Below, one piece after another: positions 4,704 through 47,537 of a stretch of DNA of 64,000 nt. Within the stretch, counting starts at the first letter, position 1; each line of letters starts with the position of its first letter. The position numbers were made by a program, and so were the translations under genes. This DNA is from a virus (lineage: Duplodnaviria > Heunggongvirae > Uroviricota > Caudoviricetes). The DNA is taken from the IMG/VR virus record IMGVR_UViG_2913147268_000005; one strand, written 5' to 3'. Under the pieces are notes generated by a model. That model did no database searches. It was given only the letters and a program-made list of their open reading frames with translations, and was not told the origin of the DNA.

Positions 4704-4754
4704 TTTGCTGCTCCTCATCATATCGACCCTGCAAGGTCGGTTAGTTTCTCCACA

Positions 4755-4840
4755 AAACAGAGAAGAACACCTGCGGTGACTGCCGCCCGGATGGATTGGG
4801 TTATGAGCCCGTCGTCCGGTGATGCTCTTCTCTGTTTTGT
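4755..4840. repeat. Perfect 15-bp inverted repeat (ACAAAACAGAGAAGA / TCTTCTCTGTTTTGT) enclosing about 56 nt; candidate structured RNA or DNA element
   Basis: Read directly from sequence; lies in a roughly 470-bp stretch with no convincing ORF. Confidence 0.45.
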
Positions 4841-5104
4841 AAAAAGGACGGTACCAGCCGGAAGCAAGGGTACAAGCTGGTACCGCCAAGACTACACACA
4901 GCATAAAGTTGTGGTGCCGGGTGCCTCCCGGTGCCTGGCGAAGGTTGCACACTAGGCGGGTGGGTATCCACAGAAGGTCGACTGTCAGCCTCAACCTTAA
5001 CCCGCGTGCGCTGAGCCGCATTCACCACAACGCTAAGGATTCTCTCTGGTTGAAAATACTTAGCTGTTATGTGCCTGCTTTTAGCCACATCAGGCGAGGT
5101 GGAC

Positions 5105-6031: not shown

Positions 6032-6658
6032 TTAGAGTTCGTATTGAACTCCTTTGACTACACCAATGATAAGGCAATTACCATTGATAGGGATGTTGGG
6101 ATACCGAGGATTTAATGGCACTAAAAACTTTTGAGGGCCATCGATGACTAATTTTTTTACTGTAGCTTCGTTTGTTCCATCAAGTCGAGCGATGACTATT
6201 TTTCCATGACGAGGTTCTGCATCTGGATCTACAATCACTGTTGCGCCTTCTGGTATTGTTGGGAGGCCATTAGGGTTAGTCATGGAGTCACCTTTAACCT
6301 CTAATGCAAATGAGTTATCACCAATCTTTAATGATGTATCTACCCACTTGTCCACTTCACTAAACACTTCTGCTGCCCTGCACTCAGTAAACTGCCCAGC
6401 CTGAACCCACGATATTACAGGAACTCTGCGCATGTTTGTGACGAGTTTGCCTTCAAACTCAGCACCATAAAGAATGTAATCTATTGACGTATTGAAGAAC
6501 TTCGCTAATTTCGAAAGTGCCTCCCCACCAGGGGTATTGATGTCTTTCTCCCAGTACCCCACAGCAACGTCGCTTACTCCACAAAATTTACCCAATTCTT
6601 TCTGGGACGTTCTGGTAACTCTTCTCAGAGCTTTTATACGCTGACCAACCGTTTCCAT
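6032..6658 (-). CDS. cI: CI-type phage repressor (HTH plus LexA-like S24 peptidase domain)
   Basis: 208 aa; N-terminal HTH (QKELGKFCGVSDVAVGYWE); C-terminal autocleavage domain with Ser (GDSM) and Lys (VIARLDG...KKL) regions; divergent from the cro-like gene. Confidence 0.85.
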   Translation of the reverse strand: METVGQRIKALRRVTRTSQKELGKFCGVSDVAVGYWEKDINTPGGEALSKLAKFFNTSIDYILYGAEFEGKLVTNMRRVPVISWVQAGQFTECRAAEVFSEVDKWVDTSLKIGDNSFALEVKGDSMTNPNGLPTIPEGATVIVDPDAEPRHGKIVIARLDGTNEATVKKLVIDGPQKFLVPLNPRYPNIPINGNCLIIGVVKGVQYEL

Positions 6659-6755
6659 AGGAGCACCATTTCTTTAATTACTAAGTAATCTTAGTTTTTA
6701 TTGACCAAAGATAGATTTGTAATTAGCATCTAATAAAACTTAGTTTGGAGGGCGT
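6659..6755. promoter_or_regulatory. Divergent repressor/cro promoter-operator region
   Basis: 97-bp intergenic region with the 13-bp palindrome ATTACTAAGTAAT and two CTTAGTT half-site-like repeats. Confidence 0.6.
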
Positions 6756-6956
6756 ATGACAACTGACGATATCGAAAGCTACTTCGGCAGTATTGAGAAA
6801 GTTGCTGCTTTTTTCGGCATAACAACTGAAGCCGTTTATCAGTGGCGAAACCGTCCGGGCCAGTTAATTCCAAAAGGACGTGCAGCAGAAGCTGCATATA
6901 GAACTTGCGGACGGTTGCCATTTAAACCTGAGCTTTATGAAAAATCTAATGGATAA
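6756..6956 (+). CDS. cro: Cro-type small HTH regulator
   Basis: 66 aa; HTH-like segment (EKVAAFFGITTEAVYQWRN); divergent from cI. Confidence 0.7.
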   Translation: MTTDDIESYFGSIEKVAAFFGITTEAVYQWRNRPGQLIPKGRAAEAAYRTCGRLPFKPELYEKSNG

Positions 6957-7546
6957 ATCGATTAACAGAAACCACAGAACGATGAGGCTAACCGTGGGTA
7001 AGCATCACTGGAAAGTAGAAAAACAGCCTGAGTGGTACGTGAAAGCTGTCAGAAAAACTATCGCAGCGTTGCCGGGGGGGTTACGCTGAAGCTGCTGACT
7101 GGCTGGATGTAACAGAGAACGCATTATTTAACCGCCTTCGTGCCGATGGCGATCAGATTTTCCCGCTGGGATGGGCAATGATTTTGCAACGTGCTGGTGG
7201 AACTCACTTCATTGCAGATGCTGTGGCGCAGTCTGCAAATGGCGTCTTTGTGTCTCTTCCTGACGTCGAGGATGTGGACAACGCTGATATTAACCAGCGT
7301 CTGCTGGAAGTCATTGAACAGATCGGCAGTTATTCAAAACAGATTCGTTCAGCAATCGAAGACGGTGTAGTGGAACCGCATGAGAAGACAGCAATTAATG
7401 ACGAGCTCTACCTCTCAATTTCGAAGCTGCAGGAGCATGCAGCACTGGTCTACAAAATTTTTTGCATTTCAGAAAGTAATGACGCCCGCGAGTGTGCAGC
7501 TCCGGGCGCCGTGGCGTGTCGTGACTGTGGAGAAACTAACGCATGA
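6937..7546 (+). pseudogene. CII/YdaT-like regulator gene interrupted by a frameshift at a G7 homopolymer
   Basis: ORF 6937-7089 and the frame ending at 7546 join into one ~203-aa product if the G7 run at 7074-7080 were G6; the downstream part (ENALFNRLRADGDQIFPLGWAMILQ) resembles CII-type regulators. Confidence 0.4.
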
Positions 7547-7881
7547 ACAGTTTAACAACACACTACCGTCGCTCGCAACTGATTGCGCTTCCTGTACCGG
7601 GTGGAAAAGCGAAGGTGGAATATTGCTATGCAGTGAATGTACCAGGTGACAGGGAAATTGTAACCCACAGCTTTGCAGAGTGGGCTGTGGGTGATTTCAA
7701 CCGGCAGAAGGAGACAGTCCTTTGCGACAAGTTAACCGCTGGTTCAAAGATCACTACGGAGTGCCCGTCAGAGTCATTCGTTGGGAGCCGGAAACACAAC
7801 GTGTTATCTACCTCCGCGAAGGCTATGAGCATGAGTGCTTCAGCCCGCTCGAACAGTTTCGTCGTAAATTCAGGGAAATAG
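7543..7881 (+). CDS. Hypothetical protein (112 aa); C-terminal frame uncertain
   Basis: ATG overlaps the upstream stop (ATGA); the last ~35 aa are low-complexity while the -1 frame over 7695-7901 reads protein-like. Confidence 0.4.
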
Positions 7882-7890
7882 AGGTCGGTC

Positions 7891-8832
7891 ATGAGCACTA
7901 AATTAACCGGCTATGTATGGGATGGTTGCGCTGCATCAGGCATGAAATTATCCAGCGTGGCAATTATGGCCCGCCTGGCTGATTTCAGTAATGACGAAGG
8001 TGTGTGCTGGCCATCAATTGAAACCATTGCCCGCCAGATTGGCGCGGGAATGAGTACCGTCAGAACGGCTATCGCACGGCTGGAAGCAGAAGGCTGGTTA
8101 ACGCGTAAGGCGCGTCGCCAGGGTAACCGCAATGCGTCGAATGTTTATCAGCTTAACGTTGCGAAGCTTCAGGCAGCGGCATTTTCTCAACTGTCAGATT
8201 CTGACCCGTCAAAATCTGACGCATCAAAATCTGACCCGTCAAAATTTGATGCGTCGAAATCTGGCAAAAAAGCGGGTTTTCACCCGTCAGAATCTGGCGG
8301 GGATCCGTCAGTAAAATCAAAACATGATCCGTCAGATAAAAAAACTTCTCGTCCGGACGCTTCGCAACCGGACACGCAGACGGCTGAACAGGAGTTTTTA
8401 ACTCGCCATCCTGATGCGGTTGTATTCAGCCCTAAAAAGCGCCAGTGGGGAACGCAGGATGATTTGACCTGCGCACAGTGGCTCTGGAAAAAAATCATCG
8501 CCCTGTACGAGCAGGCCGCCGAATGTGACGGCGAGGTGGTTCGTCCCAAAGAACCGAACTGGACAGCCTGGGCAAACGAAATTCGCCTGATGTGTGTGCA
8601 GGATGGTCGTACTCATAAACAAATCTGCGAGATGTACAGCCGCGTCAGTCGCGATCCGTTCTGGTGCCGTAACGTGCTCAGCCCGTCGAAGCTGCGGGAA
8701 AAATGGGATGAGCTTTCCCTGCGCTTATCGCCGTCCGTCAGCACGTACACCGAAAAACGCGAAGACCCGTACTTCAAAGCCAGTTACGACAACGTGGACT
8801 ACAGCCAGATCCCGGCAGGATTCAGGGGGTGA
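7891..8832 (+). CDS. Replication initiator, lambda O-like
   Basis: 313 aa; N-terminal HTH segment (MSTKLTGYVWDGC...CWPSIETIARQIGAGMSTVRTAIARLEAEGWL); an iteron array is embedded in the coding sequence as in lambda O. Confidence 0.8.
   Translation: MSTKLTGYVWDGCAASGMKLSSVAIMARLADFSNDEGVCWPSIETIARQIGAGMSTVRTAIARLEAEGWLTRKARRQGNRNASNVYQLNVAKLQAAAFSQLSDSDPSKSDASKSDPSKFDASKSGKKAGFHPSESGGDPSVKSKHDPSDKKTSRPDASQPDTQTAEQEFLTRHPDAVVFSPKKRQWGTQDDLTCAQWLWKKIIALYEQAAECDGEVVRPKEPNWTAWANEIRLMCVQDGRTHKQICEMYSRVSRDPFWCRNVLSPSKLREKWDELSLRLSPSVSTYTEKREDPYFKASYDNVDYSQIPAGFRG
8191..8345 (+). repeat. Iteron array, putative replication origin, inside the O-like gene
   Basis: At least seven repeats of the family CCGTCAAAATCTGAC followed by an A-rich tract; encodes a Ser/Asp/Lys-rich linker. 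Confidence 0.65.
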
Positions 8833-32982: not shown

Positions 32983-33750
32983 ATGGGTAAAGGCAGCAGT
33001 AAGGGGCATACCCCGCGCGAAGCGAAGGACAACCTGAAGTCCACGCAGCTGCTGAGTGTGATCGATGCCATCAGCGAAGGGCCGGTTGAAGGTCCGGTGG
33101 ATGGATTAAAAAGCGTGCTGCTGAACAGTACGCCGGTGCTGGACACTGAGGGGAATACCAACATCTCCGGTGTCACGGTGGTGTTCCGGGCAGGTGAGCA
33201 GGAGCAGACACCGCCGGAGGGGTTTGAATCCTCCGGCTCCGAGACGGTGCTGGGTACGGAAGTGAAATATGACACGCCGATCACCCGCACCATTACGTCT
33301 GCAAACATCGACCGTCTGCGCTTTACCTTCGGCGTGCAGGCACTGGTGGAAACCACCTCAAAGGGGGACCGGAATCCGTCGGAAGTCCGCCTGCTGGTTC
33401 AGATCCAGCGTAATGGTGGCTGGGTGACGGAAAAAGACATCACCATTAAGGGCAAAACCACCTCGCAGTATCTGGCCTCGGTGGTGGTGGGTAACCTGCC
33501 GCCGCGCCCGTTCAATATACGGATGCGCAGGATGACGCGGGACAGCACCACAGACCAGCTGCAGAACAAAACGCTCTGGTCGTCATACACCGAAATCATC
33601 GATGTGAAACAGTGCTACCCGAACACGGCACTGGTCGGCGTGCAGGTGGATTCGGAGCAGTTCGGCAGCCAGCAGGTGAGCCGTAATTATCATCTGCGCG
33701 GGCGCATTCTGCAGGTGCCGTCGAACTATAACCCGCAGACGCGGCAATAC
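32983..33750 (+). pseudogene. J: Host-specificity tail protein J, N-terminal ~256 codons only
   Basis: Begins MGKGSSKGHTPREAKDNLKSTQLLSVIDAISEGP as lambda J (about 1130 aa); similarity stops after ...SNYNPQTRQY. Confidence 0.85.
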
Positions 33751-34417
33751 AGGCATTCTGTTCGCGGAACATTATCAGGGGCCGTATCGTCCGAAAGATG
33801 CCGGGTATGCGGCGAAGGGCAGTGCACTGAAACAGCATGTGATGGCCCCGCTGATTTCTTACTTTCGTGATGCGCGCGCGGCCCTGGGGATAACGGCAAA
33901 ACAGATTGCAGATGCCACAGGAAAGAAAAACATGGTGTCGCACTGGTTCAGTGCCAGTCAGTGGCAGCTACCGAACGAAAGCGATTATCTGAAATTACAG
34001 TCGCTGTTTGCCCGGGTGGCAGAAGAGAAACATCAGCGCGGTGAACTGGAAAAGCCCCACCACCAGCTGGTGGATACGTATACGTCACTGAACCGGCAGT
34101 ATGTGGAGCTGCAGAGTGAATATAAGCATCTGCGGCGGTATTTTGGTGTGACGGCGCAGGTGCCGTACACGGATGTGTGGACACATAAACCGGTGCAGTT
34201 CTATCCCGGGAAACATCCGTGCGAAAAACCGGCAGAAATGCTGCAGCAGATAATCAGCGCAAGCAGTCGTCCGGGTGACCTGGTTGCAGATTTTTTTATG
34301 GGCTCAGGTTCAACGGTAAAAGCGGCACTGGCGCTCGGGCGTCGTGCGATTGGCGTTGAGCTGGAGACCGGACGTTTTGAGCAGACAGTCAGGGAAGTTC
34401 AGGGTTTAATCGTTTGA
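33751..34417 (+). pseudogene. DNA methyltransferase C-terminal fragment (paralog of the 14952-16004 gene)
   Basis: Roughly 80% protein identity to the C-terminal 220 aa of the upstream methyltransferase; out of frame with the J fragment; internal ATG at 33839. Confidence 0.8.
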
Positions 34418-34466
34418 AACGGATGAGATTGCAGAATTAATTACGCACCATTATTATTCTGCTCCC

Positions 34467-34542
34467 GGCCCTTTAGCTCAGTGGTGAGAGCGAGCGACTC
34501 ATAATCGCCAGGTCGCTGGTTCAAATCCAGCAAGGGCCACCA
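34467..34542 (+). tRNA. tRNA with CAU anticodon (ileZ-like tRNA-Ile2 or tRNA-Met)
   Basis: Cloverleaf with acceptor GGCCCTT/AAGGGCC, GTTCAAATCC T-loop, CTCATAA anticodon loop, 3' ACCA. Confidence 0.8.
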
Positions 34543-34642
34543 TCACAAACCGCCATTAGCTTATCAGGAAGAGCAGACGACACGATAACAGGGTTGTTGG
34601 TGCGGGGGCGGGTCCCCGATGGCGGTCCATTATCGGTATTCA

Positions 34643-34719
34643 GCGTTGTTAGCTCAGCCGGACAGAGCAATTGCCTTCTAAGCAATCGGTCACTGGTTCG
34701 AATCCAGTACAGCGCGCCA
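34643..34719 (+). tRNA. tRNA-Arg (UCU anticodon)
   Basis: Cloverleaf with TAGCTCAGCCGGACAGAGC D-arm, CCTTCTAAG anticodon loop, GGTTCGAATCC T-loop, 3' GCCA. Confidence 0.8.
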
Positions 34720-34826
34720 TATTCATTCTTCCAGATTCCTTCCGGCAGAGCCTTATACTGAAATATACCTGGCTCAGGATATTGTTGAAAATATTATATG
34801 TTTGTCAAAAATAAAAGTTCTGTTAA

Positions 34827-35183
34827 GTGTTGATTGAGTGTTTGTTATACGGTCTAATGGTTTTTTCAGCATTAAATATTTATCATTCATATGGTGTGGG
34901 TAGAGTGAATATTGATGAGGCGTCGGGGTGTTTCATCCTTAGGCAGCGTATTGATATAGTCAATGCAGCACGAGCAAAGGCCTTCAGCCGTTTGACAGTT
35001 TTGTTCTGTACTCCTGATCGTCTTTCGGGAAGAGACGTTATTATTCTGAATAGTGATGCTATACAGAGGGTTTGCGATGAGTTCATGGTGGCTAATTCAG
35101 AATTATTTACTCTTGTTCAGGAGTACAACAGAATAGCCAGGACCTGTGGTATGGATGAACTTCGGATTACTCATCTGGGGTAG
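34827..35183 (+). CDS. Hypothetical protein (108-118 aa), AT-rich
   Basis: GTG or internal ATG start; no recognisable motif; occupies the slot after the tRNAs. Confidence 0.4.
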   Translation: MLIECLLYGLMVFSALNIYHSYGVGRVNIDEASGCFILRQRIDIVNAARAKAFSRLTVLFCTPDRLSGRDVIILNSDAIQRVCDEFMVANSELFTLVQEYNRIARTCGMDELRITHLG

Positions 35184-35569
35184 ATACATATCTGGATTAT
35201 CACCGGTTACGGTAAAAAGTGATTGCTTACTGTTTTTGTGAATGGCATTGCTGCAGCCGGATAATGTCAGTGCTGGCTGACGGTGTGCTGGTGGCGGGTG
35301 TGGTGGTTGTTGCTTTCCCGTTGCTGAAAAAGAAAACGCCAGACTGTTAGCCGGGTATCAGTTAGCGGGAGAAATTTTTAAATACTTCACAATTCAGGCG
35401 GTTGATTGTTGTCTGGTTTGCGGGGAGTTTGTTAAAAGAAACTGGCATGGTGAATCCCCCTGTGCGGAGGGGCAATCAGCGAGTAGGTATATGGGATAAT
35501 CGCGGATTCAGGTGCTGGTACTGAATTCACCGGGAGGCACCCGGCACCATGCAATGGCACATAGCGCCA

Positions 35570-35600
35570 CTCTCCAGCCCCTCTCCGGAGGGGCTGTTTA
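35570..35600 (+). terminator. Hairpin (9-bp stem CAGCCCCTC/GAGGGGCTG) followed by a T-rich tract
   Basis: Perfect 9-bp stem with 4-nt loop; sits between the convergent 34827 and 35631 ORFs. Confidence 0.5.
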
Positions 35601-35630
35601 TATTGATTTTGTCAGATGTGAGTAAACTCC

Positions 35631-35966
35631 TTATGGACTTTGTTGTTTTAGTCCATAAGGACATATTTGCAGAGTGCAACGGTTATTAAAGCATTCATTC
35701 AATACGTTATCTGTATTTGTAGGGCATTCCTGGCTGTTTTTGATTAAATTCCAGAATGTTTTATTGAATGGTACTACGTTGTAAATGGTTACAGGTAGCA
35801 CTTTGTTATTGAGCATGATGCCTGTGTGAGTCAGTGTAAATATACTTTCAGGAGGTAAGAAAGCATCCGATTGATACCAGATTATTAATTTTATTTTACT
35901 CCATATGACTGAAAAAGATATTCCGCATGATGGCTGGATAACTGTATCAATCACAATCCACTTCAT
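35631..35966 (-). CDS. Hypothetical Cys-containing protein (111 aa), AT-rich
   Basis: ORF on the minus strand in an AT-rich island; no motif assigned. Confidence 0.4.
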
Positions 35967-36211
35967 TTAGTTTCCTTGTTTATGCCTTGCTGGTGATGTT
36001 CTGAAAAGTATAAATGATATTTTTGATTGTAAACCATAGAGCAGAATTATTTTTCTGATGTTGTTTATTGTTTATTTAAATGCAGGGTGGTTTATATCTC
36101 GTCTTGTAGTTTATCCATGCATATCTGCTTGATGATGAGGTTTTTATTTAAGGTATGGTTTTGTGTTTTTTCTGTATTACATGTCAGGTATTTTAAAGAA
36201 TCATTTTTCAG

Positions 36212-36705
36212 ATGGTGGAAAGAACCATGGCATTTAAACACTATGATGTTGTCAGGGCGGCGTCGCCGTCAGATCTTGCGGAAAAGCTGACACATAAACT
36301 GAAAGAGGGCTGGCAGCCGTTTGGTAGTCCGGTGGCCATAACCCCTTATACCCTGATGCAGGCGATTGCAGCAGAAGGTGATGTGGTCGTCAGTGGTGCA
36401 ACTGAGCCGGAGTGGTACTACGTCATCGTACTGGCCGGGCAATCCAATGCCATGGCTTACGGTGAAGGGCTTCCGCTTCCGGATTCATACGATGCGCCCC
36501 ATCCGCGCATTAAGCAACTGGCCCGTCGTAACACAGTGACTCCCGGTGGTGAAGTATGCGTATTTAACGACATCATTCCTGCTGACCATTGTCTGCATGA
36601 TGTTCAGGATATGAGTACGATTAACCATCCCCGGGCTGACCTGAGCAAAGGGCAGTACGGCTGTGTCGGACAGGGCTTACATATTGCCAAAAAACTGCTT
36701 CCGTG
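36212..36705 (+). pseudogene. NanS-p-like esterase, N-terminal fragment
   Basis: Matches the 54243 esterase through ...GQGLHIAKKLLP (including the GQSNA motif), then diverges into the antisense of another ORF. Confidence 0.6.
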
Positions 36706-37339
36706 CATTTTTGGTAATATCCGTCAGCGTCAGCGCATTCAGCCCCAGTGTCAGACTGTCTTTTATGACCTGGAATGCCGGGCCAGCCACTCCATTCAGT
36801 TTCGGAGTAACCGTGGCACTGCCGGCGGTGAACACCAGCTCCAGCGTCTGCCAGTCGTTACTGTAATTCCCGAACTCGCCCAACTTTGTGTTTCCTGCTT
36901 TCTTGTGATGCATCAGATTCAGTTTGCCGTCTGTGGTCTGGGTGAAGAACGACATCAGGAACGGGTTACCAGTCCCGGTCATCGCCACGACGTCAGGTAA
37001 CGCTACATCGGTATACAGATAAATTCCCAGACCGAACTGATTGTTGGTCAGTGCGCCTGACAGTCGAAACTTACAGCTCAGTCTGCCACCCCGTGTCAGC
37101 AGGGAGACTGCGTCATCCACCGGGCGCGTCAGGGACCAGGCTTTATTGCTCTGCTTGGTGATCTTAAATACACCATCTGACAACTGAATTCCGCCATTCT
37201 TAATGCTCCAGCCCTGCGCAGCAGCATCTCCGGCTGTCGGCAACAGGGAGATTGTGCGTACGGATGCATCTTCAGACGGCCCCGATGGCGTGTCGCCGCC
37301 GGGCGAGGGTTTGATTTCCGGTGCCTTACCACTAGTCAT
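36677..37339 (-). pseudogene. Inverted gene fragment (220-aa ORF) starting with the 56-bp repeat and ending in the antisense of the esterase fragment
   Basis: Begins MTSGKAPEIKPSPGGDTPSGP (the same peptide the 54243 ORF encodes at its junction); the last ~10 codons are antisense to 36677-36705. Confidence 0.45.
37278..37333 (-). repeat. 56-bp inverted repeat, left copy
   Basis: Reverse complement reads AGTGGTAAGGCACCGGAAATCAAACCCTCGCCCGGCGGCGACACGCCATCGGGGCC, identical to 55434-55489 by my reading. Confidence 0.8.
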
Positions 37340-37393
37340 CGGGCATTATCTGAACATAAAACACTATCAATAAGTTGGAGTCATTACCCAAAA

Positions 37394-37804
37394 ATGCACG
37401 CAAAAGAAGAAGGTATCATCAGAGCACTGAAAGAAATTTCAAAGACAGAAAACGAAGTAGCGAAAAAAGCCATAGCAAATAATCATATGGACGTCGCAAC
37501 CCACACACTGATAGTCGCAAGAGTCACGGCAGAAGCAGCCGAAATTATCGCAAAACAGGATGCTGAACTGGCGGTTCTCAGAACACAACCAGTCACCGGA
37601 CTGGATTTGTCTAACACCGGACGCCTTATTTACACAATTGGCTCGGAGCTACAGCGATACACCATTATCGCCGGGTTACAGGATAAATACCTGATCACTC
37701 CTCACCCCATAAGGGAATCAGAAATTCTGACAAATCTCCGCCTGATAGAGCGCTCTCAAGTCGCATTCATTGATGACGCACAGTGCACCGTATTTAACGC
37801 ATAG
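37394..37804 (+). CDS. Hypothetical protein (136 aa)
   Basis: ORF with ATG start at the left end of the P2-like module. Confidence 0.5.
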   Translation: MHAKEEGIIRALKEISKTENEVAKKAIANNHMDVATHTLIVARVTAEAAEIIAKQDAELAVLRTQPVTGLDLSNTGRLIYTIGSELQRYTIIAGLQDKYLITPHPIRESEILTNLRLIERSQVAFIDDAQCTVFNA

Positions 37805-37827
37805 AGTTACTGGACAAAGGGGGCGCA

Positions 37828-38031
37828 ATGGCAATTAAGCATTTTCCCGTCGTTCGCTTTACCTCCAGAGGGCGCGAATACGAGGTCGACGAACGCCTGA
37901 TTACCACTATCGACAAACATCGTTCGGAAAAGGATGCACACCACATCTACCTCACTGACGGCACTTACTTCTGCGCCACTAATGTGGCGCGGGTAAACCT
38001 TATCCGACAGGTACAGGAGCCACGCAGATGA
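37828..38031 (+). CDS. Hypothetical small protein (67 aa)
   Basis: ORF overlapping the next gene by 4 nt. Confidence 0.4.
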   Translation: MAIKHFPVVRFTSRGREYEVDERLITTIDKHRSEKDAHHIYLTDGTYFCATNVARVNLIRQVQEPRR

Positions 38032-38294
38032 CCATTCTGGACTACATCGCTACTCATCCGGGGTGTAGCGGCGGAGAGATCGCCGCAGCACTGAATACTC
38101 CAACCACAGCCATTAATGCTGAGTTACGCCAACTTTGGCGCGGCGGCTTAGTCATCAGAACAAACCGCAGCACAGGTGGTCGCGCTCGCAAAACTGGAGG
38201 CCAGGCTTCTTACCACGTAAACCCGATGCCGTTCGGGTGTAGCAATCCACTTACTCACATGTTTAACCAGCTACTGAAGGAAGCCAGAACATGA
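38028..38294 (+). CDS. Winged-helix DNA-binding protein (88 aa)
   Basis: HPGCSGGEIAAAL motif shared with the N-terminus of the 8829-9323 protein. Confidence 0.5.
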   Translation: MTILDYIATHPGCSGGEIAAALNTPTTAINAELRQLWRGGLVIRTNRSTGGRARKTGGQASYHVNPMPFGCSNPLTHMFNQLLKEART

Positions 38295-38590
38295 GCACCA
38301 TCAACCACCAGAAGCTACGCGAACTGGCATTTGCCCTGCAACGAATGGCAACACCTCAAAAATTACTGGCATTTCGCGCAATGCTCTCGCCGTCTGCTGC
38401 GCTGGCATTGCTGGATGAGCTGGAGCACGCCAGAACCACGGCTCCTGCCATTCGCCTGACGCTCCATCATGAAATCGCTGATTTCTGCGCGACATTGGAG
38501 GTGCCAGGCGAACCGGAAACGCCGGAAGCAATACAGCAAGAGCTGCTGCAACGTATTGACAAGGTTTTTGATTTTTTTCTGAACCAGTAA
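38291..38590 (+). CDS. Hypothetical protein (99 aa)
   Basis: ORF overlapping the upstream gene by 4 nt. Confidence 0.5.
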   Translation: MSTINHQKLRELAFALQRMATPQKLLAFRAMLSPSAALALLDELEHARTTAPAIRLTLHHEIADFCATLEVPGEPETPEAIQQELLQRIDKVFDFFLNQ

Positions 38591-38713
38591 GAAACCAGAG
38601 CATGCACACACAAAAAAACCGCTTGCCATGCCGCAATCAGTCAGGTTACATTTCCGCTGCACCTCATAAAACGGGTGCCGGGTTTCGCAGCCTGCTGACT
38701 ACACAAGCGCACA

Positions 38714-38733
38714 ACCGCGCCAGCGGTTTTTTT
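38714..38733 (+). terminator. Intrinsic terminator candidate (ACCGC-GCCA-GCGGT plus T7)
   Basis: Hairpin plus T-run about 125 nt after the 38291-38590 gene. Confidence 0.45.
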
Positions 38734-38912
38734 GTGCGTACTGTATTGCCACGTTTTTTTCGCGTCAGAATTATGGCGGGGCGTACGGGGCCGACTTCGG
38801 TCGGGCCGGGTTCTTGTGTAGCCGGTACTGCGAACCTCGTACGTCTCGCCACCCACAGTTTCGCAGCTCTGGATGGTGAGTTTTCACAACTTACTACACA
38901 AGGGGCCACACC

Positions 38913-39143
38913 ATGGCAAACCGCAAACAGCACCGCGCTATCGCGGAGCGTCGTCACATCCAGACTGAAATCAACCGCAGACTTTCCCGCGCATCACGCG
39001 TCGCGCAAATCATGCACATCAATATGCTGCATGAGCGCAGCCACGCACTATCAAACATTTATTCCGCCTCTGTTTTCAGCTATCTGGCGGATGATCTGCA
39101 CGAGCTTCAACAGCTCATCCAGCAGCAAAACAAACTCCATTAA
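38913..39143 (+). CDS. Hypothetical small basic protein (76 aa)
   Basis: ORF with protein-like composition; overlapped by a longer low-complexity frame that I reject. Confidence 0.35.
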   Translation: MANRKQHRAIAERRHIQTEINRRLSRASRVAQIMHINMLHERSHALSNIYSASVFSYLADDLHELQQLIQQQNKLH

Positions 39144-39215
39144 TTCCTGTTCCGGGCCTTTCCTGCACCTTGCGGCGGGAGGCCTTCGCACATCTGTAAC
39201 AAGAGGATTGCCGCA

Positions 39216-39581
39216 ATGATTCTCGCCAACGACTTTCTTGAATACCTGCTCAATACAGAACGTGATCTTGCCGCTCGCGTGCGTGATCGTTATGACATGT
39301 ACCTGAAATCCCTGCCTGTACCGCAGCTCGCTGACGGAAAGATTGTTATTGATGGTCGCTACATGATTGACAGCCACGAGGGAAATTACAGGCTTTACCG
39401 CATTGAAGGTGGCACCCCGTCCGTTATTGGCATTTACCAGCGCCCATCCTCTGCAATCGTCGATGTGATTGCCGACAGCATCCGCATCACACATCGCCAT
39501 GCCGACACAGAAGACACCGTGCTGGAAATTCAGCGGCTGGCTACAGTCTGCCGCGACACCCTGAATGGCATGACGAAGTAA
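39216..39581 (+). CDS. Hypothetical protein (121 aa) immediately upstream of the replication gene
   Basis: ORF ending 6 nt before the gpA-like start. Confidence 0.5.
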   Translation: MILANDFLEYLLNTERDLAARVRDRYDMYLKSLPVPQLADGKIVIDGRYMIDSHEGNYRLYRIEGGTPSVIGIYQRPSSAIVDVIADSIRITHRHADTEDTVLEIQRLATVCRDTLNGMTK

Positions 39582-39587
39582 ATCACT

Positions 39588-42410
39588 ATGACGGCAGAGT
39601 ACCTCAGGGACTGGCAACAACCGCGCCACGCAGTGGGGCGTGAAGGAACGGGGATCCCCGCTCCTGAATCCGCGCTTTCCTCCTGGCTGGATGCCTACCG
39701 GGCAGAGAACGAGCGCCGCCAGGAAATGGCTGATGCGGCGTTCTCAGCCACGCCGCTGGGCAACCTGATTAATAAAAGCCTGGACGCACAGGAAAAACAG
39801 GACAAAACCATCACACTGGCAGGAGACGCCAGAAAACAGGCACGTGGCGCGGTGGATGAAGCCATGGCCTCGCTGCGCCTGCTGCCGTCCTATCTGCGCG
39901 ATCCGCTTATTCGCCACCTCTCCTTCCTGCGCAAAAAACAGGAAGCCGATCGCCGGAAAGGCAAAAAGAGCTGGCAGGCGGAACGCTATGCACGCGGAAC
40001 CCTGCGCAAAATATTCGAACGTCTGGATAGCACTGACGGACGCTGGCTGACACCGGGTTATCGCTCCCTTGCCGGACGCGAACGCCTGGACGATTTGCTT
40101 TACCTGCCGCAGCTCAACAAACACCAGATACAGACGCTGGCCACCATGACGGCGGCGATGTTCAGCAGCACCTTCGAAAAACTCTGCGATGGCTTTGGCG
40201 CGACCGATGGCGAGCTGACCATGGATGTAACCCTGAAGGCGTATCAGATGCTGGCCCGCATGGCGTTACACCTGCACGCCATGCCTCCACATTATGACGC
40301 ACTGACAACAGACAAAGACCGGAGGAACGAACCGGACACGGAGCTGCTGCCGGGCGCAATCCTTCGCCTGACCTGTGCGGAATGGTGGAAACGCAAACTG
40401 TGGCTGTTACGTTGCGAGTGGAGAGAAGAACAACTCCGCGCCGCCTGTCTGGTTTCCAGAAAAACATCACCCTATCTGAGCCAGGACGCGTTAAGCGAGT
40501 TTCGCGCACAGCGCGAGAAAACACGCGATTTCCTGAAAAGTTTCATGCTGGAAAATGAAGACGGGTTCACGATTGATCTCGAGACAGTGTATTACGCGGG
40601 AGTAAGTAACCCGGTTCACCGTAAGGCAGAAATGATGGCCACCATGAAGGGACTGGAACTTCTGGCCGAAGCCCGTGGCGACAAAGCGGTGTTTCTGACT
40701 GTCACCTGCCCGTCAAAATACCACGCCACAACGGAGAACGGTCATCCGAATCCCAAATGGAACGGGGCCACAATGCGCGACTCCAGCGATTACCTGGTTA
40801 ACACGTTTTTTGCGGCGGTCCGCAAAAAACTGAACCGCGACGGCCTGCGCTGGTATGGCATCCGCACGGTGGAGCCTCATCATGACGGCACCGTGCACTG
40901 GCATATGATGGTCTTTGCACATCCGGAAGAAATCGACACCATTGTGTCCCATACCCGCGATATTGCCATTCAGGAAGACCGCCACGAGCTGGGCAATGAT
41001 ATTACTCCGCGCTTTAAGGTGGAGTATGTCGACGGCTCAAAAGGCACGCCAACCAGCTACATCGCCACCTACATCGGAAAGAACCTGGACAGCCGCGCCG
41101 TGGATGGCATCGACCCGAAAACGGGCAAGCCACGCGTGGACCACGAAACCGGAAAATCAATGGCCGAGAGCGTGGAGCGCGCCATCGGCTGGGCGCGCCT
41201 TCACCGGGTCCGTCAGTTCCAGTTCTTTGGCATCCCCTCCCGTCAGGTGTGGCGTGAACTGCGCCGCCTTGCCAGCCAGATGGCACGCAATCCGGAAGGC
41301 CCGCAACGGCTGAAAGATGATGCAATGGATGCGGTACTCGCTGCCGCCGATGCCGGGTGTTTTGCCACCTACATTGAAAAACAGGGTGGCGTGCTTGTTC
41401 CACGCAAGGACTACCTGATTCGCACCGCCTACGACCTCGCAGATGAGCTGAACGATTACGGCGAACAGAGCGTACAGATTTACGGGATCTGGTCACCACT
41501 CATCGGGGAATCCTCCCGTGTGTGCACGCATCCGGATAACTGGAAGCTGGTAAGACGTAAACCGGAAGCGGAAGACAGCGCCCGCGAAAATGGTTTTGAC
41601 CTTCAGGGCGGCCCTGCCGCCCCTTGGACTCGTGGCAATAACTGTCCCCGTGTACAGGAAACGGACAACAACGGGACAGAACAGCCGGAAGAACGGCCAG
41701 CACCGTGGCCGCAGCTCCCTGACGGCGTTGAAGTGAACGAATGGATGCGCTCACTGAAACGACACGAACGCCGGGCGCTGATGCGTTCGCTTCGTGACAA
41801 ACAGGCAAAAAACAGCAGCGATGAAATGCAGAGCTGGACACAGAGCCGCAAACAGCAGCGGCCTTTGCCTGATAACCACGAATTACTCGCTAAAGAATGG
41901 CGGGAGTCTGCTGAATCTCTCGGCCTGCATATCGGTGAACAACAGATGCAGCACCTGTTACGGGGCGGCAGTCTGTACGTTGACGGCAGCATCATTGCAC
42001 CGCAGGGATTTGAAATTGTACGCAAACCGGATACCCGCCCGGACAGCCGAATCACGCAGCTCTGGCAGCGCCTGAGCCGTAATCATGGCGTAAGCAGCAC
42101 GGAGATCCGCCATAACCCGGTCGCCAGCTATCTGGCACAGCTGGGGGCATCAGACCCTGAAGCCGCCGCACGCCTGGCATCCACACTTCAGCAGGGCCAG
42201 AACACCATGAAAACACCCGTTACCGTGCTTTCTGACATGCTGCGCGCCATCCGCGACGCAGAGCACGCACAGAGAATCAGTGAAACCACTGAACGCGCCA
42301 GCCGCAAAGCAGACCTGCTGCGGGGTGGCCTGACCAGTGGAAACAAAAAACAGACAGAAACGGGACTTACGAATCCCGTAAATGAGCAAAAAACGCGCAG
42401 CGATATATGA
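39588..42410 (+). CDS. Rolling-circle replication endonuclease, P2 gpA family
   Basis: 940 aa; HUH-type motif (GTVHWHMMVF) and paired tyrosines (SYIATYIGK). Confidence 0.8.
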   Translation: MTAEYLRDWQQPRHAVGREGTGIPAPESALSSWLDAYRAENERRQEMADAAFSATPLGNLINKSLDAQEKQDKTITLAGDARKQARGAVDEAMASLRLLPSYLRDPLIRHLSFLRKKQEADRRKGKKSWQAERYARGTLRKIFERLDSTDGRWLTPGYRSLAGRERLDDLLYLPQLNKHQIQTLATMTAAMFSSTFEKLCDGFGATDGELTMDVTLKAYQMLARMALHLHAMPPHYDALTTDKDRRNEPDTELLPGAILRLTCAEWWKRKLWLLRCEWREEQLRAACLVSRKTSPYLSQDALSEFRAQREKTRDFLKSFMLENEDGFTIDLETVYYAGVSNPVHRKAEMMATMKGLELLAEARGDKAVFLTVTCPSKYHATTENGHPNPKWNGATMRDSSDYLVNTFFAAVRKKLNRDGLRWYGIRTVEPHHDGTVHWHMMVFAHPEEIDTIVSHTRDIAIQEDRHELGNDITPRFKVEYVDGSKGTPTSYIATYIGKNLDSRAVDGIDPKTGKPRVDHETGKSMAESVERAIGWARLHRVRQFQFFGIPSRQVWRELRRLASQMARNPEGPQRLKDDAMDAVLAAADAGCFATYIEKQGGVLVPRKDYLIRTAYDLADELNDYGEQSVQIYGIWSPLIGESSRVCTHPDNWKLVRRKPEAEDSARENGFDLQGGPAAPWTRGNNCPRVQETDNNGTEQPEERPAPWPQLPDGVEVNEWMRSLKRHERRALMRSLRDKQAKNSSDEMQSWTQSRKQQRPLPDNHELLAKEWRESAESLGLHIGEQQMQHLLRGGSLYVDGSIIAPQGFEIVRKPDTRPDSRITQLWQRLSRNHGVSSTEIRHNPVASYLAQLGASDPEAAARLASTLQQGQNTMKTPVTVLSDMLRAIRDAEHAQRISETTERASRKADLLRGGLTSGNKKQTETGLTNPVNEQKTRSDI

Positions 42411-42486
42411 AGCGCGCACAAAACAGGCAAAAACGGGATTTCAGAATCCCGTAAACGATTAATTAATCAACATAAGGAAAAGCGAC

Positions 42487-43446
42487 ATGAAAATTTGTAT
42501 CGACGACGGCTCCACCAACATCAAGCTGGCATGGACTGAGAATGGCGAACGCCGCAACGCCATCAGCCCGAACAGCTTCAAGTCGGAATGGTCTGCGCCG
42601 TTCGGTGGCATGCAGCCCGCGAACTACATGCTTGATGGCGTGCGCTATGGTTTTGATCCGGTTAGCGATCGCTTTGTCCAGACGACCGACACGCAATACC
42701 AGTACAGCGATGTGAATGTAATCGCCATTCATCACGCGCTGGTCAAATCAGGCATCACGCCACAGGAGGTGGATGTGGTTGTCACCCTGCCACTGAGCGA
42801 GTATTTCGACACAAACGCACAGCCGGACATGGCCAACATCAACCGCAAAAAAGCGAACGTTATGCGCCCGGTGGAATACCAGAACGGCGAAGCATTCACT
42901 ATCCGTAACGTGCGGGTTATGCCTGAATCCATTCCGGCTGGCTTTAAAGCACTGGCTGACATGAGTCCGTTTGAATCCCTGCTGATTGTGGATTTAGGCG
43001 GAACCACGCTGGATGTGGCAAAGGTTCAAGGGCAACTGGCAGGTATCAGCCAGGTGTTTTGCGATCCACACGTAGGCGTTTCCCTGATGGCCGATGCCGT
43101 ACTGTCGGTGATGGCCACTAACGGTATGCGCACCAGTCACCACATCGCCAATACCATTATCGAACATCGCCATGATGAAGCCTGGCTGCGCCAGCACATC
43201 CACAATGACGCGCATTACGCCAGCCTGATGGCGGTTATTCGTGAAAAGGAAGAAACACTGAAACAACGCGTGATCCGCGCGCTGGCGGTTTTTTCGGGTT
43301 ACGGGCGGGTGATGGTTGTCGGTGGAGGGGCGGAGATTGTGGCACCCGCTATCCGCGAAGTCTGCGGAGTTAATGCGACTTTCATCGCGGACGGGGTGCC
43401 ACAGTTTGCTCTGGTTAATGGGCTGTACGCAATGGACAAGGAGTAA
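42487..43446 (+). CDS. ParM/StbA-like actin-fold ATPase
   Basis: Phosphate-1 (KICIDDGSTNIKLAW) and phosphate-2 (LIVDLGGTTLDVA) motifs of the actin/Hsp70 fold; 319 aa. Confidence 0.7.
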   Translation: MKICIDDGSTNIKLAWTENGERRNAISPNSFKSEWSAPFGGMQPANYMLDGVRYGFDPVSDRFVQTTDTQYQYSDVNVIAIHHALVKSGITPQEVDVVVTLPLSEYFDTNAQPDMANINRKKANVMRPVEYQNGEAFTIRNVRVMPESIPAGFKALADMSPFESLLIVDLGGTTLDVAKVQGQLAGISQVFCDPHVGVSLMADAVLSVMATNGMRTSHHIANTIIEHRHDEAWLRQHIHNDAHYASLMAVIREKEETLKQRVIRALAVFSGYGRVMVVGGGAEIVAPAIREVCGVNATFIADGVPQFALVNGLYAMDKE

Positions 43447-43450
43447 ACCA

Positions 43451-43765
43451 ATGACGACACCAACCAGACGGATAAGTTTCTATCTGAAGCCCGCCGCCGT
43501 CAAGAGTGAACAGGAGGCGTGCAATTACCTCGATAGCCTGCCAGCCTCCGAACGCAGCCGCGCGCAACGCGCGGCCTTTCTGGCTGGGCTAGCGCTCATA
43601 AAGCGCAACCCAGCATTTGCCTACTGGATGGCCGAATGGCCAGAGGACAACCTCCCCTTCAATACCGTTAGCATCAAGGAAACATACCAGGATAATCAGC
43701 CTAGCGGAGTTGAATGCAATTTTTATAAAATAAAAAAGAATATTCAGACCTTATTCCCAGAATAA
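43451..43765 (+). CDS. Small protein downstream of the ParM-like gene (ParR-like adaptor candidate)
   Basis: ATG at 43451 behind a GGAGTAAACC RBS; N-terminal RISFYL beta-strand-like start; assignment is positional only. Confidence 0.4.
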   Translation: MTTPTRRISFYLKPAAVKSEQEACNYLDSLPASERSRAQRAAFLAGLALIKRNPAFAYWMAEWPEDNLPFNTVSIKETYQDNQPSGVECNFYKIKKNIQTLFPE

Positions 43766-43848
43766 TCTGATAATTGTATGTGAACTAATAAAATACAGAC
43801 CAACACATCATTCTGGCACCCTTGCTAACAGGGTGCCAATGTTTCAAA

Positions 43849-44691
43849 TCATGATGAAATTGCCGAAGTTTTTTTATCGTGCTGAAGTACCGCAAATGCC
43901 ATTAAAACCTCAAGAGAATAGCGGCGATAATACTTAACAAAACCATAATAAAATACTCGGGATGCAGCAATACAAAACAAGAGAAGAAAACAAAAAGGTA
44001 ACAGTCTGATATTTATATCTATTAAAAAGGATAGAAGGAGCAGGAACATAAGCAACCAGACTGAAGCGAGAAAAACAAATGTAATGTTTCTACAAAAACC
44101 ATACAAAGCAACATAGTTTTGCATTTTCACCTGATGATTTTTAGAATGTTCATACACATAATGATAAGCAAGGCGAAAAAGATCGCCCCTCAAGCCCTTA
44201 CGTCGATATAGCGTAGATACAGAAAAAACATTTATATAACCATCTCGTATTTGCGGCCAAAAGACTTTAATAAGTATAGAATGCAGTGTGGTTTTATGAT
44301 GTTCTGCTTTATCAAAAGCTGATACAGGAAATAAAAAAACTCCACGAATAAAATTAACTATACTGAACTTAGTATTATGTCGTTTTATTTTCAGGGAGCT
44401 TCTTTTAGAAAACAGATAAATTGAAGGATACCCAAGTTTACTGTTCATGTATTTTTCAATTAAACAGGATGATAGAATAGATATGAAGTGACCTGAAATA
44501 TATGATAGAACGATTAATACCACATATATAAATACACTTATTATTTCTTTATATTTCAGGATATGGTTAAGAATACCTTCTATATAAACAGGGTTAATTT
44601 CAATAGAAAACAAAAAAAGGATAAACAGGAATAACCCACCTGGAATTAGATAGCCCAAAAAGTCATAAAATGAAAACGGATTCTGTGTCAC
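43849..44691 (-). CDS. Multi-pass membrane protein (280 aa), AT-rich cargo
   Basis: GTG start behind an AGGGGGAAGT RBS; two N-terminal and two C-terminal hydrophobic helices around a ~120-aa loop; second gene of a two-gene operon. Confidence 0.55.
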   Translation of the reverse strand: MTQNPFSFYDFLGYLIPGGLFLFILFLFSIEINPVYIEGILNHILKYKEIISVFIYVVLIVLSYISGHFISILSSCLIEKYMNSKLGYPSIYLFSKRSSLKIKRHNTKFSIVNFIRGVFLFPVSAFDKAEHHKTTLHSILIKVFWPQIRDGYINVFSVSTLYRRKGLRGDLFRLAYHYVYEHSKNHQVKMQNYVALYGFCRNITFVFLASVWLLMFLLLLSFLIDINIRLLPFCFLLLFCIAASRVFYYGFVKYYRRYSLEVLMAFAVLQHDKKTSAISS

Positions 44692-44730
44692 ACTTCCCCC
44701 TGTGTTACTTGTAAATTAAAGGGTAAAACA

Positions 44731-45228
44731 TTATTTGTTTTTCCGTAAAGGATTAGCTTTCCATCTTCTTACTAACCATTCGAATTCTTGATATGTAGTA
44801 TCCGAATTAATGCTTTCTCTGATTGCTTTAATTAATGGCTCGGCAATATCATATGTCTCTACAACTGTTGTGTAAGATGTTCTTTTTATCATTTTTTCAT
44901 CATAAATACCTTCACGAATACTTACAGCAACTCGCTCGTAAAAATTTAAAATATATTGAAATTTTCGACGCTCGGCCATTTCTTCATCTGTTATTATGCA
45001 ACCATCACAAGGAAAAACATAAGAACGAAATGATTTGCCTGAACGATGCACTTGTTTCAGGGTATGCAATGACTCTATATATTGCATATCTTGCCGACTC
45101 TCAAAAAGAAAGTTGGCCGTTTGAGTTTTTTTTGCGGTACGCACATTGTAGATAATGGTTCCAATGGCAACCAAAACGCCAAGCAGAACAATAGCATTGC
45201 TGATGATTTGTAGTGTTATTGGGTTCAT
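44731..45228 (-). CDS. N-terminally membrane-anchored protein (165 aa), AT-rich cargo
   Basis: One N-terminal TM helix (LQIISNAIVLLGVLVAIGTIIY) then a soluble domain containing CDGC; first gene of the operon. Confidence 0.55.
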   Translation of the reverse strand: MNPITLQIISNAIVLLGVLVAIGTIIYNVRTAKKTQTANFLFESRQDMQYIESLHTLKQVHRSGKSFRSYVFPCDGCIITDEEMAERRKFQYILNFYERVAVSIREGIYDEKMIKRTSYTTVVETYDIAEPLIKAIRESINSDTTYQEFEWLVRRWKANPLRKNK

Positions 45229-45248
45229 CCTATTTCATCCATAAAAAA

Positions 45249-45275
45249 GGCGGGGAGCAAATCCCCGCCTCATTA
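45249..45275 (-). terminator. Hairpin (GGCGGGGA/TCCCCGCC) plus U6 on the minus strand, about 15 nt upstream of the 44731-45228 RBS
   Basis: Perfect 8-bp stem with 5-nt loop; T-run on the minus strand. Confidence 0.55.
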
Positions 45276-45426
45276 GAGGTCAACGTAGCTTAGAAACCAT
45301 CAAATTCATCATACATTTTTTTCATATCAACCCCCTCATAGAAATCATAACCACGTTTTGTGGTTTTTGTGACGTATAAACTACATCAAAGGCAAGCCAC
45401 GGTCAAATATATAGGCATGCTTACCT

Positions 45427-45453
45427 GCACAAAAGTGCACAAATTTGCACAAT
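45427..45453. promoter_or_regulatory. Three direct TGCACAA repeats with 10-bp phasing
   Basis: TGCACAAaagTGCACAAattTGCACAA read on the plus strand; a TATATT -10-like hexamer lies downstream on the minus strand. Confidence 0.5.
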
Positions 45454-45951
45454 TTTTTTGAACGACTTTTTACCCTTCCGGCCCGCATGGCGGCTGGATC
45501 CGTCAAGGATCCGTGCGTGCACAAAAAAACGCGCTTTTTCTGCGCGCAGGTGACGGGGGAACAGCCCGCGTTTCAGGGGGTAAATAGCATTCCCTGAACG
45601 ATGTCGCAGAGACACAACAGAATGGCCATATTTCTCACGCTGAGCATGAAAAAGGCGTGAGGGCTTTTGATTTGATGGGGTGAAAGGTAAGGCCGTCAAA
45701 ATCGCACTGAGGCAGCGAGAACATGCAGTCAACGCGGTGGAATTGCGTAAGAGTCTGACCGTCGATGGTGGCGATAAACTGGAAGGCGTCGTGAAATTAT
45801 CTGATTGATACAGGAGCTGGAGAGCCGGGGCATAAATTTTTTATGCCCCGGCGAAGCAGCAGACAAGCGAAGCGCGTCAGCGATACGGCACCTTGCCGAC
45901 CATACTTCATAAGTGCAAAATACGAGCAAAGAAATCAATGGAGGCTGTCTT

Positions 45952-46476
45952 ATGGTCATTAATTACAAGCAGTTAAGAGAAAAACGGGAGCAGGTAAAGG
46001 AGAGCTTTCGCCGCAATGAAGATCTGACCCCGCTTGTACGCCTTGCCCAGGGCATTGTTGATGCTTATGAAATCTCGCTGGAGCTGCCATCACAGACCTG
46101 GACAGATAGCGACGGTAATCGCCAGCATTACGTTTCATGCGGACTGGAAGCAGCCGAAGGATTTCGCAGAATGCCTTTATCCCAGATCCCTGCCGCTACC
46201 CCCAAAGCACGGGGCAGCAATGATGAGCGAAAACTGACTTTTAGTATTGAAACGGTGGTTGACGACACACCTGGCGAAGTCGCGTTCGTGCACACTCCTG
46301 TTTCGATCGCAATGTATAACGATGAAATACAGGTTCGCGTTAATAATAATATCGTGCCACTTAAAGAAGGTAATTCACCCTACACCACCGTTTGTGAAGC
46401 CATTCAATATTACGTTCTCTCTGAAATTGATAATCTCAAGCCTGACGGCACCCAGAAAATGGTTCAACTCTGGTAA
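45952..46476 (+). CDS. Hypothetical protein (174 aa)
   Basis: ATG at 45952 with GGAGG RBS 7 nt upstream; followed directly by a strong terminator hairpin. Confidence 0.5.
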   Translation: MVINYKQLREKREQVKESFRRNEDLTPLVRLAQGIVDAYEISLELPSQTWTDSDGNRQHYVSCGLEAAEGFRRMPLSQIPAATPKARGSNDERKLTFSIETVVDDTPGEVAFVHTPVSIAMYNDEIQVRVNNNIVPLKEGNSPYTTVCEAIQYYVLSEIDNLKPDGTQKMVQLW

Positions 46477-46483
46477 AAAGGAC

Positions 46484-46510
46484 AGCCCCATCACGGGGCT
46501 GTTTTTTCAT
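46484..46510. terminator. Bidirectional intrinsic terminator (CAGCCCC-ATCAC-GGGGCTG plus T6)
   Basis: Perfect 7-bp stem flanked by an A-run and a T-run between two convergent genes. Confidence 0.6.
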
Positions 46511-47537
46511 CAAGAAGAGCATAAGAGTTAAAACGGATCACCTCTTCGCCAAGCCAGTCATTGATGTGCTTCATAGCCTCCATAACGGGCATCAGCTCGT
46601 TAATTGCGTAAACCCGCGCTGCCTTCTCCACATCGCCAAACGCACTTTTTTCGCCCGGCATCGCCCCCATCAGTTGCGGCGGAACGCGGTGCGCAGCCAG
46701 CACATCATCACGGGATGCCGCCTTAACATTCATGAATTCATCTTTTGCGGTGATCTGCTGGAACGGCAAAATTTGCACCCCCTCTTTGCCCCCGTTGGGC
46801 GCATGAATGAGCACGTTTTTAAACGCACCACCACCACGTGCCCCCTGTAGCGTTTCTTTCAGGGAGTCCATGCTTTCGCGGTTTACCTGCGCTGCACCGA
46901 TGTAGATGATGCACCCGGCGTGGGATCCGTTGTCGTAGTACAGTTTTCTGAACATGTCCGCCGAATGAGAAAGGCTGGCCGAGAGTAATGCGCCAAGATA
47001 TTCCGGCATGCCGTAGATTTCCTGGTTAATATCCGGATTCATCAGGTGGCACACTTTGCCAGGACGAAACTGAAACGCGTCCTTGCCATCCTGCACATAC
47101 CACCATGATTCAAGATCGCTTCCGCGTCGCATGTATTTCGCCAGGGCGTGCCGTAATTTAAGCGGTTCGCCGAGCATATTGCTTCGAAGCTCAAGGAATG
47201 CGTTACCGAACACAAACCAGTCCAGCGCCAGCGCCGAGAAATCCTGCCGGGAAAGCAGCGGGTGCGGGATGTAGCAACCGAGTAATACATTGCGCTTAAA
47301 GTAAAGCGCAGACTGATGCCAGGACGTTTGCCGGGCTGCTCTTGCCAGACCGTACCAGTCCACCGGGGTTTCATACCACCGCCCGTTATCAGCACAGTAC
47401 ATATTGTCCAGCAGGTCATGCCCGGTCAGGCGATAAGGACCATCAAATGTGAATGCACTGAGCGATGATTCTTTCCTGAGCGCATCAGCGAGATCAATGC
47501 GTGAACTCATGCGCACTTTTTTATTTTTTCTGCTCAT
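46491..47537 (-). CDS. Portal protein (P2 gpQ-like)
   Basis: 348 aa; adjacent to and divergent from the scaffold/capsid genes, as in P2. Confidence 0.85.
   Translation of the reverse strand: MSRKNKKVRMSSRIDLADALRKESSLSAFTFDGPYRLTGHDLLDNMYCADNGRWYETPVDWYGLARAARQTSWHQSALYFKRNVLLGCYIPHPLLSRQDFSALALDWFVFGNAFLELRSNMLGEPLKLRHALAKYMRRGSDLESWWYVQDGKDAFQFRPGKVCHLMNPDINQEIYGMPEYLGALLSASLSHSADMFRKLYYDNGSHAGCIIYIGAAQVNRESMDSLKETLQGARGGGAFKNVLIHAPNGGKEGVQILPFQQITAKDEFMNVKAASRDDVLAAHRVPPQLMGAMPGEKSAFGDVEKAARVYAINELMPVMEAMKHINDWLGEEVIRFNSYALLDEKTAP

Follow-up and report, generated by a model that had tools for sequence, protein, structure and literature searches.

Directly downstream of cro, in the immunity region of the window (the whole stretch of viral DNA that was analysed, 64,000 nucleotides long), lies ymfL, a gene whose reading frame is broken at a run of seven G. 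The gene order is cI-like repressor, cro, ymfL, ymfM and replication genes, and the position of ymfL right after cro bears out a first-pass annotation of this DNA, which had placed the affected gene at the lysis-lysogeny decision point. The region comprises the following features:

6032-6658, minus strand: CI-like repressor with HTH_3 and Peptidase_S24 domains (LexA-type, self-cleaving), divergent from cro; PGAP 'LexA family protein', WP_000450737.1
6701-6729, plus strand: candidate pR-like sigma-70 promoter upstream of cro, a consensus match alone (9/12), with sigma-70 matches no more numerous than in shuffled sequence
6756-6956, plus strand: Cro-like regulator, 66 aa; Pfam P22_Cro, 4.4e-11; WP_000205494.1, identical in related prophages
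6994-7546, plus strand: ymfL pseudogene (186-CII-like regulator), frameshifted; same coordinates given by PGAP in an identical genome
7074-7080, plus strand: G7 tract; the nearest intact allele has G6, CCG GGG GGT TAC, encoding P G G Y
7082-7138, plus strand: segment coding for the helix-turn-helix (HTH; residues 30-48 of intact YmfL, YAEAADWLDVTENALFNRL), aligned to the 186 CII HTH
7087-7089, plus strand: premature TGA, ending the N-terminal remnant (31 aa from GTG 6994; 50 aa from ATG 6937)
7178-7546, plus strand: C-terminal remnant ORF, 122 aa; PF06892 positions 53-141
7543-7881, plus strand: ymfM homolog, cell division inhibitor SfiC, 112 aa, 109/112 identical to K-12
7722-7901, plus strand: DUF4222 ORF, 59 aa, overlapping the ymfM homolog in another frame
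7891-8832, plus strand: O-like, replication-initiator-like HTH protein, the next gene of the early rightward operon

A search of 6650-7150 for CII-operator-like repeats or a leftward promoter returned just trivial repeats of 7-11 nt. The ymfL stop overlaps the ymfM start (ATGA), and ymfM has its own GGAG ten bases upstream; by this arrangement, it is possible that the ymfL frameshift also affects ymfM. In ST131-type genomes, PGAP annotates the 59-aa DUF4222 ORF and not the ymfM homolog, the two overlapping by 160 nt.

Positions 1-33752 of the window are collinear, at 99.97-100% identity, with an ST131-type prophage of strain Ecol_AZ146 that begins at an integrase gene and reaches the chromosome on the side of ssrA. 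In the Ecol_AZ146 prophage, the genes for replication, Q antiterminator, lysis, terminase, capsid and tail are all present, and just two CDS are pseudogenes, one of which is ymfL. Judged by gene content, it is an otherwise intact, near-complete lambdoid prophage. At about 4718-5028 (minus strand) the window holds a second CDS that PGAP calls 'frameshifted', a hypothetical one; the three related genomes examined all carry this flag, also where ymfL is intact. Collinearity with Ecol_AZ146 stops at 33752, followed by tRNA-Met and tRNA-Arg genes (34467-34542 and 34643-34719), and beyond about 36.7 kb its match is a P2-like prophage sited elsewhere in ST131 chromosomes. Among 20,395 E. coli RefSeq records, a single one spanned 80% or more of the stretch 33000-52000. 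The genome behind the window may be rearranged or may have been assembled differently.

Reading frames at the G7 tract

The tract at 7074-7080 (GGGGGGG) is the sole G run of seven or more across the 64-kb window. Because about four such runs are expected in random sequence of the window's base composition, the run itself is not unusual, and it is its position that matters. The frame that begins at ATG 6937 (MKNLMD...ALPGGLR, ending ...TIAALPGGLR) stops at TGA 7087-7089, just past the tract. The frame that stops at TGA 7544-7546 is open from 7043 and has ATG 7178 as its first ATG, GTG or TTG (122 aa), with just the non-canonical CTG and ATT as further start codons before that point. Removal of one G fused both frames into 202 aa from ATG 6937, with the junction ...TIAALPGGYAEAADWL...; over a longer stretch, the G-deleted fused ORF reads ...TIAALPGGYAEAADWLDVTENALFNRLR... 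across the junction. These read-outs agree with the first-pass annotation, which had described an upstream ORF ending just after the tract, a downstream frame with no start before 7178, and a fusion restored by one G fewer. Its fused length of about 203 aa corresponds to just one of the possible readings. Further in-frame starts lie at ATG 6949, ATG 6982 and GTG 6994. The last of these, preceded by GAGG 6 nt upstream, is the start used by PGAP and in the K-12 annotation and gives 183 aa, the family norm for YmfL being 183-185 aa; phage Kati and a few GenBank entries start at ATG 6937 (202 aa).

A database search with the fused product yielded 446 homologs, so the worry that a fusion might be without relatives fell away. 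Homologs of 183-185 aa span the Enterobacterales at 100% query coverage (Escherichia, Citrobacter, Klebsiella, Salmonella, Pantoea, Cronobacter and others), and PF06892 is precomputed for nearly all homologs listed. In an alignment of 29 homologs, the junction motif L-P-G-G-Y was ungapped, with G28, G29 and Y30 invariant. Because full-length homologs cover the fusion and the motif spans the junction without a gap, the two pieces are halves of one gene, split by one extra G as had been proposed. The G-rich DNA at this point is itself forced, since the conserved Gly-Gly is invariant in the YmfL family.

Family and predicted structure of YmfL

The fused product matched positions 2-143 of the 143-position YmfL equivalog model NF041471, scoring 167.8 bits (cut-off 90; E 1.2e-49). 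In its 202-aa form it matched Pfam PF06892 (Phage_CP76) over residues 36-169 (51.1 bits against a gathering threshold of 26, E 1.7e-13), and in PHROGs it matched phrog_101, 'CII-like transcriptional activator' (6.5e-71). All three matches uphold the earlier suggestion that the middle of the fusion is of CII type. NF041471 requires an uninterrupted frame of about 183-185 aa, which in the window is broken by the +1 shift at 7074-7080; the window ymfL is a pseudogene of the YmfL family, and PGAP calls it likewise. The accompanying suggestion of a YdaT-like identity did not hold. In a Pfam scan of the fused product at E<=1, YdaT and lambda-CII families were absent, the matches being PF06892 and a spurious DUF7577, and lambda CII and YdaT were both absent among the 50 PDB fold matches listed. 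A YdaT-like or lambda-CII-like identity is ruled out by sequence at E<=1 and by the fold matches listed.

A PDB sequence search with the YmfL family profile gave chance-level matches alone, and 186 CII was therefore reached by fold search. The AlphaFold model of YmfL (mean pLDDT 75, above 90 over residues 11-40) comprises an N-terminal helical domain with a predicted HTH at 29-48, two long helices and a disordered tail; the HTH helices, 29-37 and 41-48, are modelled with pLDDT above 90. The best 8 PDB matches in Foldseek were all 186 CII (6VLI/6VPE/6VMH; probability 0.97-1.00, E 5e-3 to 5e-2). The N-terminal domain superimposed on 186 CII with a TM of 0.68-0.69 and an rmsd of 3.3-4.3 A, and the full-length model with a modest TM of 0.36-0.45. 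Aligning the YmfL profile to the 186 CII sequence with hhalign placed the two in register over the HTH, at a non-significant E of 0.21, and paired the YmfL helix ENALFNRL with the 186 CII recognition helix carrying V36/Q37, the residues altered in the 186 cII- mutant (PMC7708051). Pfam membership, fold and synteny together point to a putative CII role for YmfL. In the literature searched, the ymfL frameshift is not described and YmfL is without a demonstrated phenotype.

The shift falls in codons 28-29 of ymfL, directly before the HTH, and the HTH segment 7082-7138 is read by neither remnant ORF. The 122-aa remnant begins at residue 62 of intact YmfL, past the HTH, and in the AlphaFold model corresponds to part of the N-terminal domain, the two long helices and the disordered tail, without the HTH. 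Because the shift precedes the HTH and neither remnant product contains it, we infer that DNA binding, and hence CII-type function, is lost in the G7 allele. With a pLDDT below 50, the tail itself (residues 158-183; window about 7469-7546) is predicted to lack order, but its motifs DARECAAPG...GETNA are conserved from genus to genus. Two proteases, FtsH and RseP, are recruited by the C-terminal region of 186 CII, and by analogy the disordered tail of YmfL may be a degron.

Tract alleles and the origin of the frameshift

We surveyed the alleles of the tract across 20,395 E. coli RefSeq records, requiring its flanks of 31+31 nt to match exactly:

CCGGGGGGTTAC (G6-TT): in frame, 53 records, including FREC5, ETEC1730 and phage Kati
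CCGGGGGGGTAC (G7-T; synonymous GGT to GGG): in frame, 292 records, including O157:H7 and temperate phage SfII
CCGGGGGGGTTAC (G7-TT; the window allele): +1, 38 records, ST131-type clone
G8-T: +1, 0 records
CCGGGGGGTAC (G6-T): -1, 7 records, diverse hosts

Other relatives interrupt the G run (CCGGGTGGT; LPSGY in K-12). The comparison of tract lengths that the first-pass annotation had called for showed one intact gene in the more distant relatives. Two genes with a G7 tract in related prophages, the outcome it had set against its own reading, occurred in members of the same clone alone (e.g. vB_EcoS-569R4), the distant relatives having a single gene.

The window differs from FREC5, which encodes intact YmfL (WP_000515845.1), by a single G as the sole difference in 1201 bp, and the two share their repressor and Cro proteins. 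FREC5 is the single G6 near-twin, and it carries a different, mosaic prophage. The in-frame G7-T alleles examined adjoin a different immunity module. Given the one-G difference from FREC5 and the other immunity module beside the G7-T alleles, a change from G6 to G7 is the parsimonious event; insertion of a T into an in-frame G7-T allele could be an alternative origin. The 1201 bp that include the G7 tract recur at 100% identity in 38 complete E. coli genomes, which come from many laboratories, countries and sources; O25b:H4-ST131 stands in the names of several. These 38 copies are without additional damage, which argues that the event is recent. RefSeq/PGAP labels the locus 'ymfL, frameshifted'.

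Taken together, the locus very probably represents a genuine clonal +1 frameshift (G6 to G7) in ymfL of an ST131-type prophage, with loss of function by ordinary decay. Relatives with an intact gene encode, in their early rightward operon (cro, ymfL, ymfM and replication genes), a YmfL of 183-185 aa, which, by its homology to 186 CII and its position, should activate repressor synthesis for the establishment of lysogeny. The Gly-Gly codons of the tract are held in place by the invariant protein motif, and replication slippage on CCG GGG GGT is the most likely source of the extra G. Translation now halts two codons past the tract, before the HTH, and the sole downstream ORF restarts beyond it. 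In a lysogen, the mutation is expected to be neutral because a resident prophage needs no establishment function, and it would hitch-hike as the clone expands. Slippage in the G7 allele may restore the frame at a low level.

Judging from these alleles, the tract appears to be a recurrent indel site. The allele CCGGGGGGTAC, which is shifted by -1 relative to the common in-frame G7 allele, occurs in 7 unrelated genomes. They represent at least 6 haplotypes that differ at 17-36 sites per 3 kb; in one carrier, NZRM4169, that base is all that separates 3 kb of sequence from an intact O157:H7 allele. The carriers come from human, baboon, pig and beef sources and are all annotated 'ymfL frameshifted', with the change at about position 1530 of each extracted locus. 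This -1 set may include long-read assembly errors. A different ymfL frameshift is found in 2013C-3250, where A6 replaces A5 (AGAAAAAACT) about 25 nt upstream of the G tract, and where the ymfL locus is also broken downstream by an IS1203 fragment. An adaptive domestication, in which the tract would be a selected hotspot where lysogens repeatedly knock out the CII-like gene (+1 in the ST131-type clone, -1 in at least 6 other backgrounds), perhaps lowering the SOS-inducible YmfM and the replication genes via the ATGA overlap and so making the prophage less harmful to its host, seems very unlikely to us; should the recurrent indels prove to be selected, they would illustrate, on a small scale, how hosts disarm a module of prophage regulator and division inhibitor.

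The same recurrence, one +1 clone and at least 6 -1 haplotypes across E. coli, would be compatible with a phase-variable switch, in which frequent changes between G6 and G7 turn the CII-like regulator on and off. The slipped-strand switching raised by the first-pass annotation is, however, not supported, because the clone shows no mixing of tract lengths: all 38 of 38 genomes identical over 1201 bp have G7, and the one near-identical G6 record belongs to a mosaic, different prophage. Moreover, the G8-T allele was present in 0 of 20,395 records, and 292 records as well as temperate phage SfII show a stable in-frame G7. Seven G are also short when compared with classical G/C contingency tracts, and an establishment gene that is silent in the lysogen would leave nothing to toggle. 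We consider such a switch very unlikely.

The other option put forward at the outset, a sequencing or assembly error that hides a true G6 and an intact gene, is very unlikely. Homopolymers are error-prone, the -1 version (CCGGGGGGTAC) appears in 7 unrelated complete assemblies, in one of which that base is the sole difference from an intact allele, and some of these assemblies could be long-read artefacts. For the G7-TT allele, however, a one-off error is hard to reconcile with the 38 identical complete genomes and with the exact 122-aa remnant product, which is called on 833 contigs, in 1327 index blocks. These contigs are mostly 10-20 kb long, a size typical of short-read drafts, and the one that was read at the sequence level carried G7-TT. 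A random error would not recur identically, and G8 was not seen.

Programmed recoding, by which +1 ribosomal frameshifting or transcriptional slippage would yield full-length YmfL from G7, is extremely unlikely. A tRNA-Gly on GGG could re-pair perfectly one base downstream (7075-7077 to 7076-7078), and the next codons, GGG and UUA, are rare in E. coli. Programmed frameshifts are conserved, however, and that of the ymfL G7 allele is not: the out-of-frame arrangement is limited to one clone, and all diverged homologs are single in-frame ORFs. Finally, two genuine separate genes, as in phage record ON470598, are scarcely credible: the predicted prophage vB_EcoS-569R4 annotates two 'YmfL' CDS and PHROGs families match each piece (phrog_7487, phrog_8690), but that record was predicted computationally as a prophage in an isolate of the same kind, and the 88-nt gap at 7090-7177 codes, in the downstream frame, for the family's most conserved stretch with the HTH in it, and neither piece has that HTH. 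For the same reason, being a computational prediction, vB_EcoS-569R4 was rejected as proof of a viable G7 phage. With respect to the two PHROGs families, both labelled 'unknown function', phrog_7487 (122 positions) matches the 7178-7546 remnant end to end, and phrog_8690 matches about 6994-7140; both appear to be by-products of split annotations of frameshifted ymfL.

Consequences for the prophage and comparison with known systems

The locus is already known in so far as public annotation flags ymfL as a frameshifted pseudogene, and a clonal G6-to-G7 change of this kind is ordinary prophage decay and not a new mechanism. Its value lies mostly in annotation hygiene: it explains PHROGs and gene-caller 'families' that are really ymfL halves, and it provides a handy marker of one ST131-type prophage lineage. 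If YmfL acts like 186 CII, the resident prophage should be unaffected, and released phage should lysogenise new hosts poorly. In K-12, YmfM is the SOS-inducible division inhibitor SfiC, and overexpression of YmfL caused no filamentation (bioRxiv 10.1101/2020.11.19.390815). When ymfL was deleted in K-12, viability under azlocillin showed no significant change, and under nalidixic acid the effect was small.

The closest known counterpart is YmfL of the K-12 cryptic prophage e14 (b1147), which shares 176 identical residues with the window protein (about 96% over 183 shared positions). The e14 genes follow the same order, ymfK-like repressor, ymfT-like cro, ymfL and ymfM, with the same ATGA overlap. 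Whereas e14 YmfL is intact and has LPSGY without a G run, the window has LPGG from a G tract and is frameshifted, and a 2-residue indel sets the C-terminal tails of the two proteins apart. In Shigella phages SfII/SfIV/SfV and in Stx2 phages, the 'cII' genes, annotated cII or YmfL, are the same gene at 87-98% DNA identity. They are intact in these functional temperate phages, SfII having the in-frame G7 (CCGGGGGGGTAC).

186 CII (6VLI/6VPE/6VMH) belongs to the same Pfam family, PF06892, and is the best fold match, with its HTH at the equivalent position; like YmfL it has a disordered C-terminal tail, and the two share just 14-17% identity. In both systems a division inhibitor follows, fil in 186 and ymfM in the window; in phage 186 (locus 1936-2680), fil lies directly after cII. 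This suggests that the pairing of a CII-like gene with a division inhibitor is conserved across unrelated phage types. The settings differ in that 186 is a P2-like phage with apl upstream of cII, whereas cro stands upstream of ymfL in the window. Activation of a pE-type leftward establishment promoter by YmfL is putative, by analogy with 186. Lambda cII and YdaT (CP-933P/Rac) occupy the same place after cro and have the same presumed task in establishing lysogeny; they are analogous to ymfL, not homologous.
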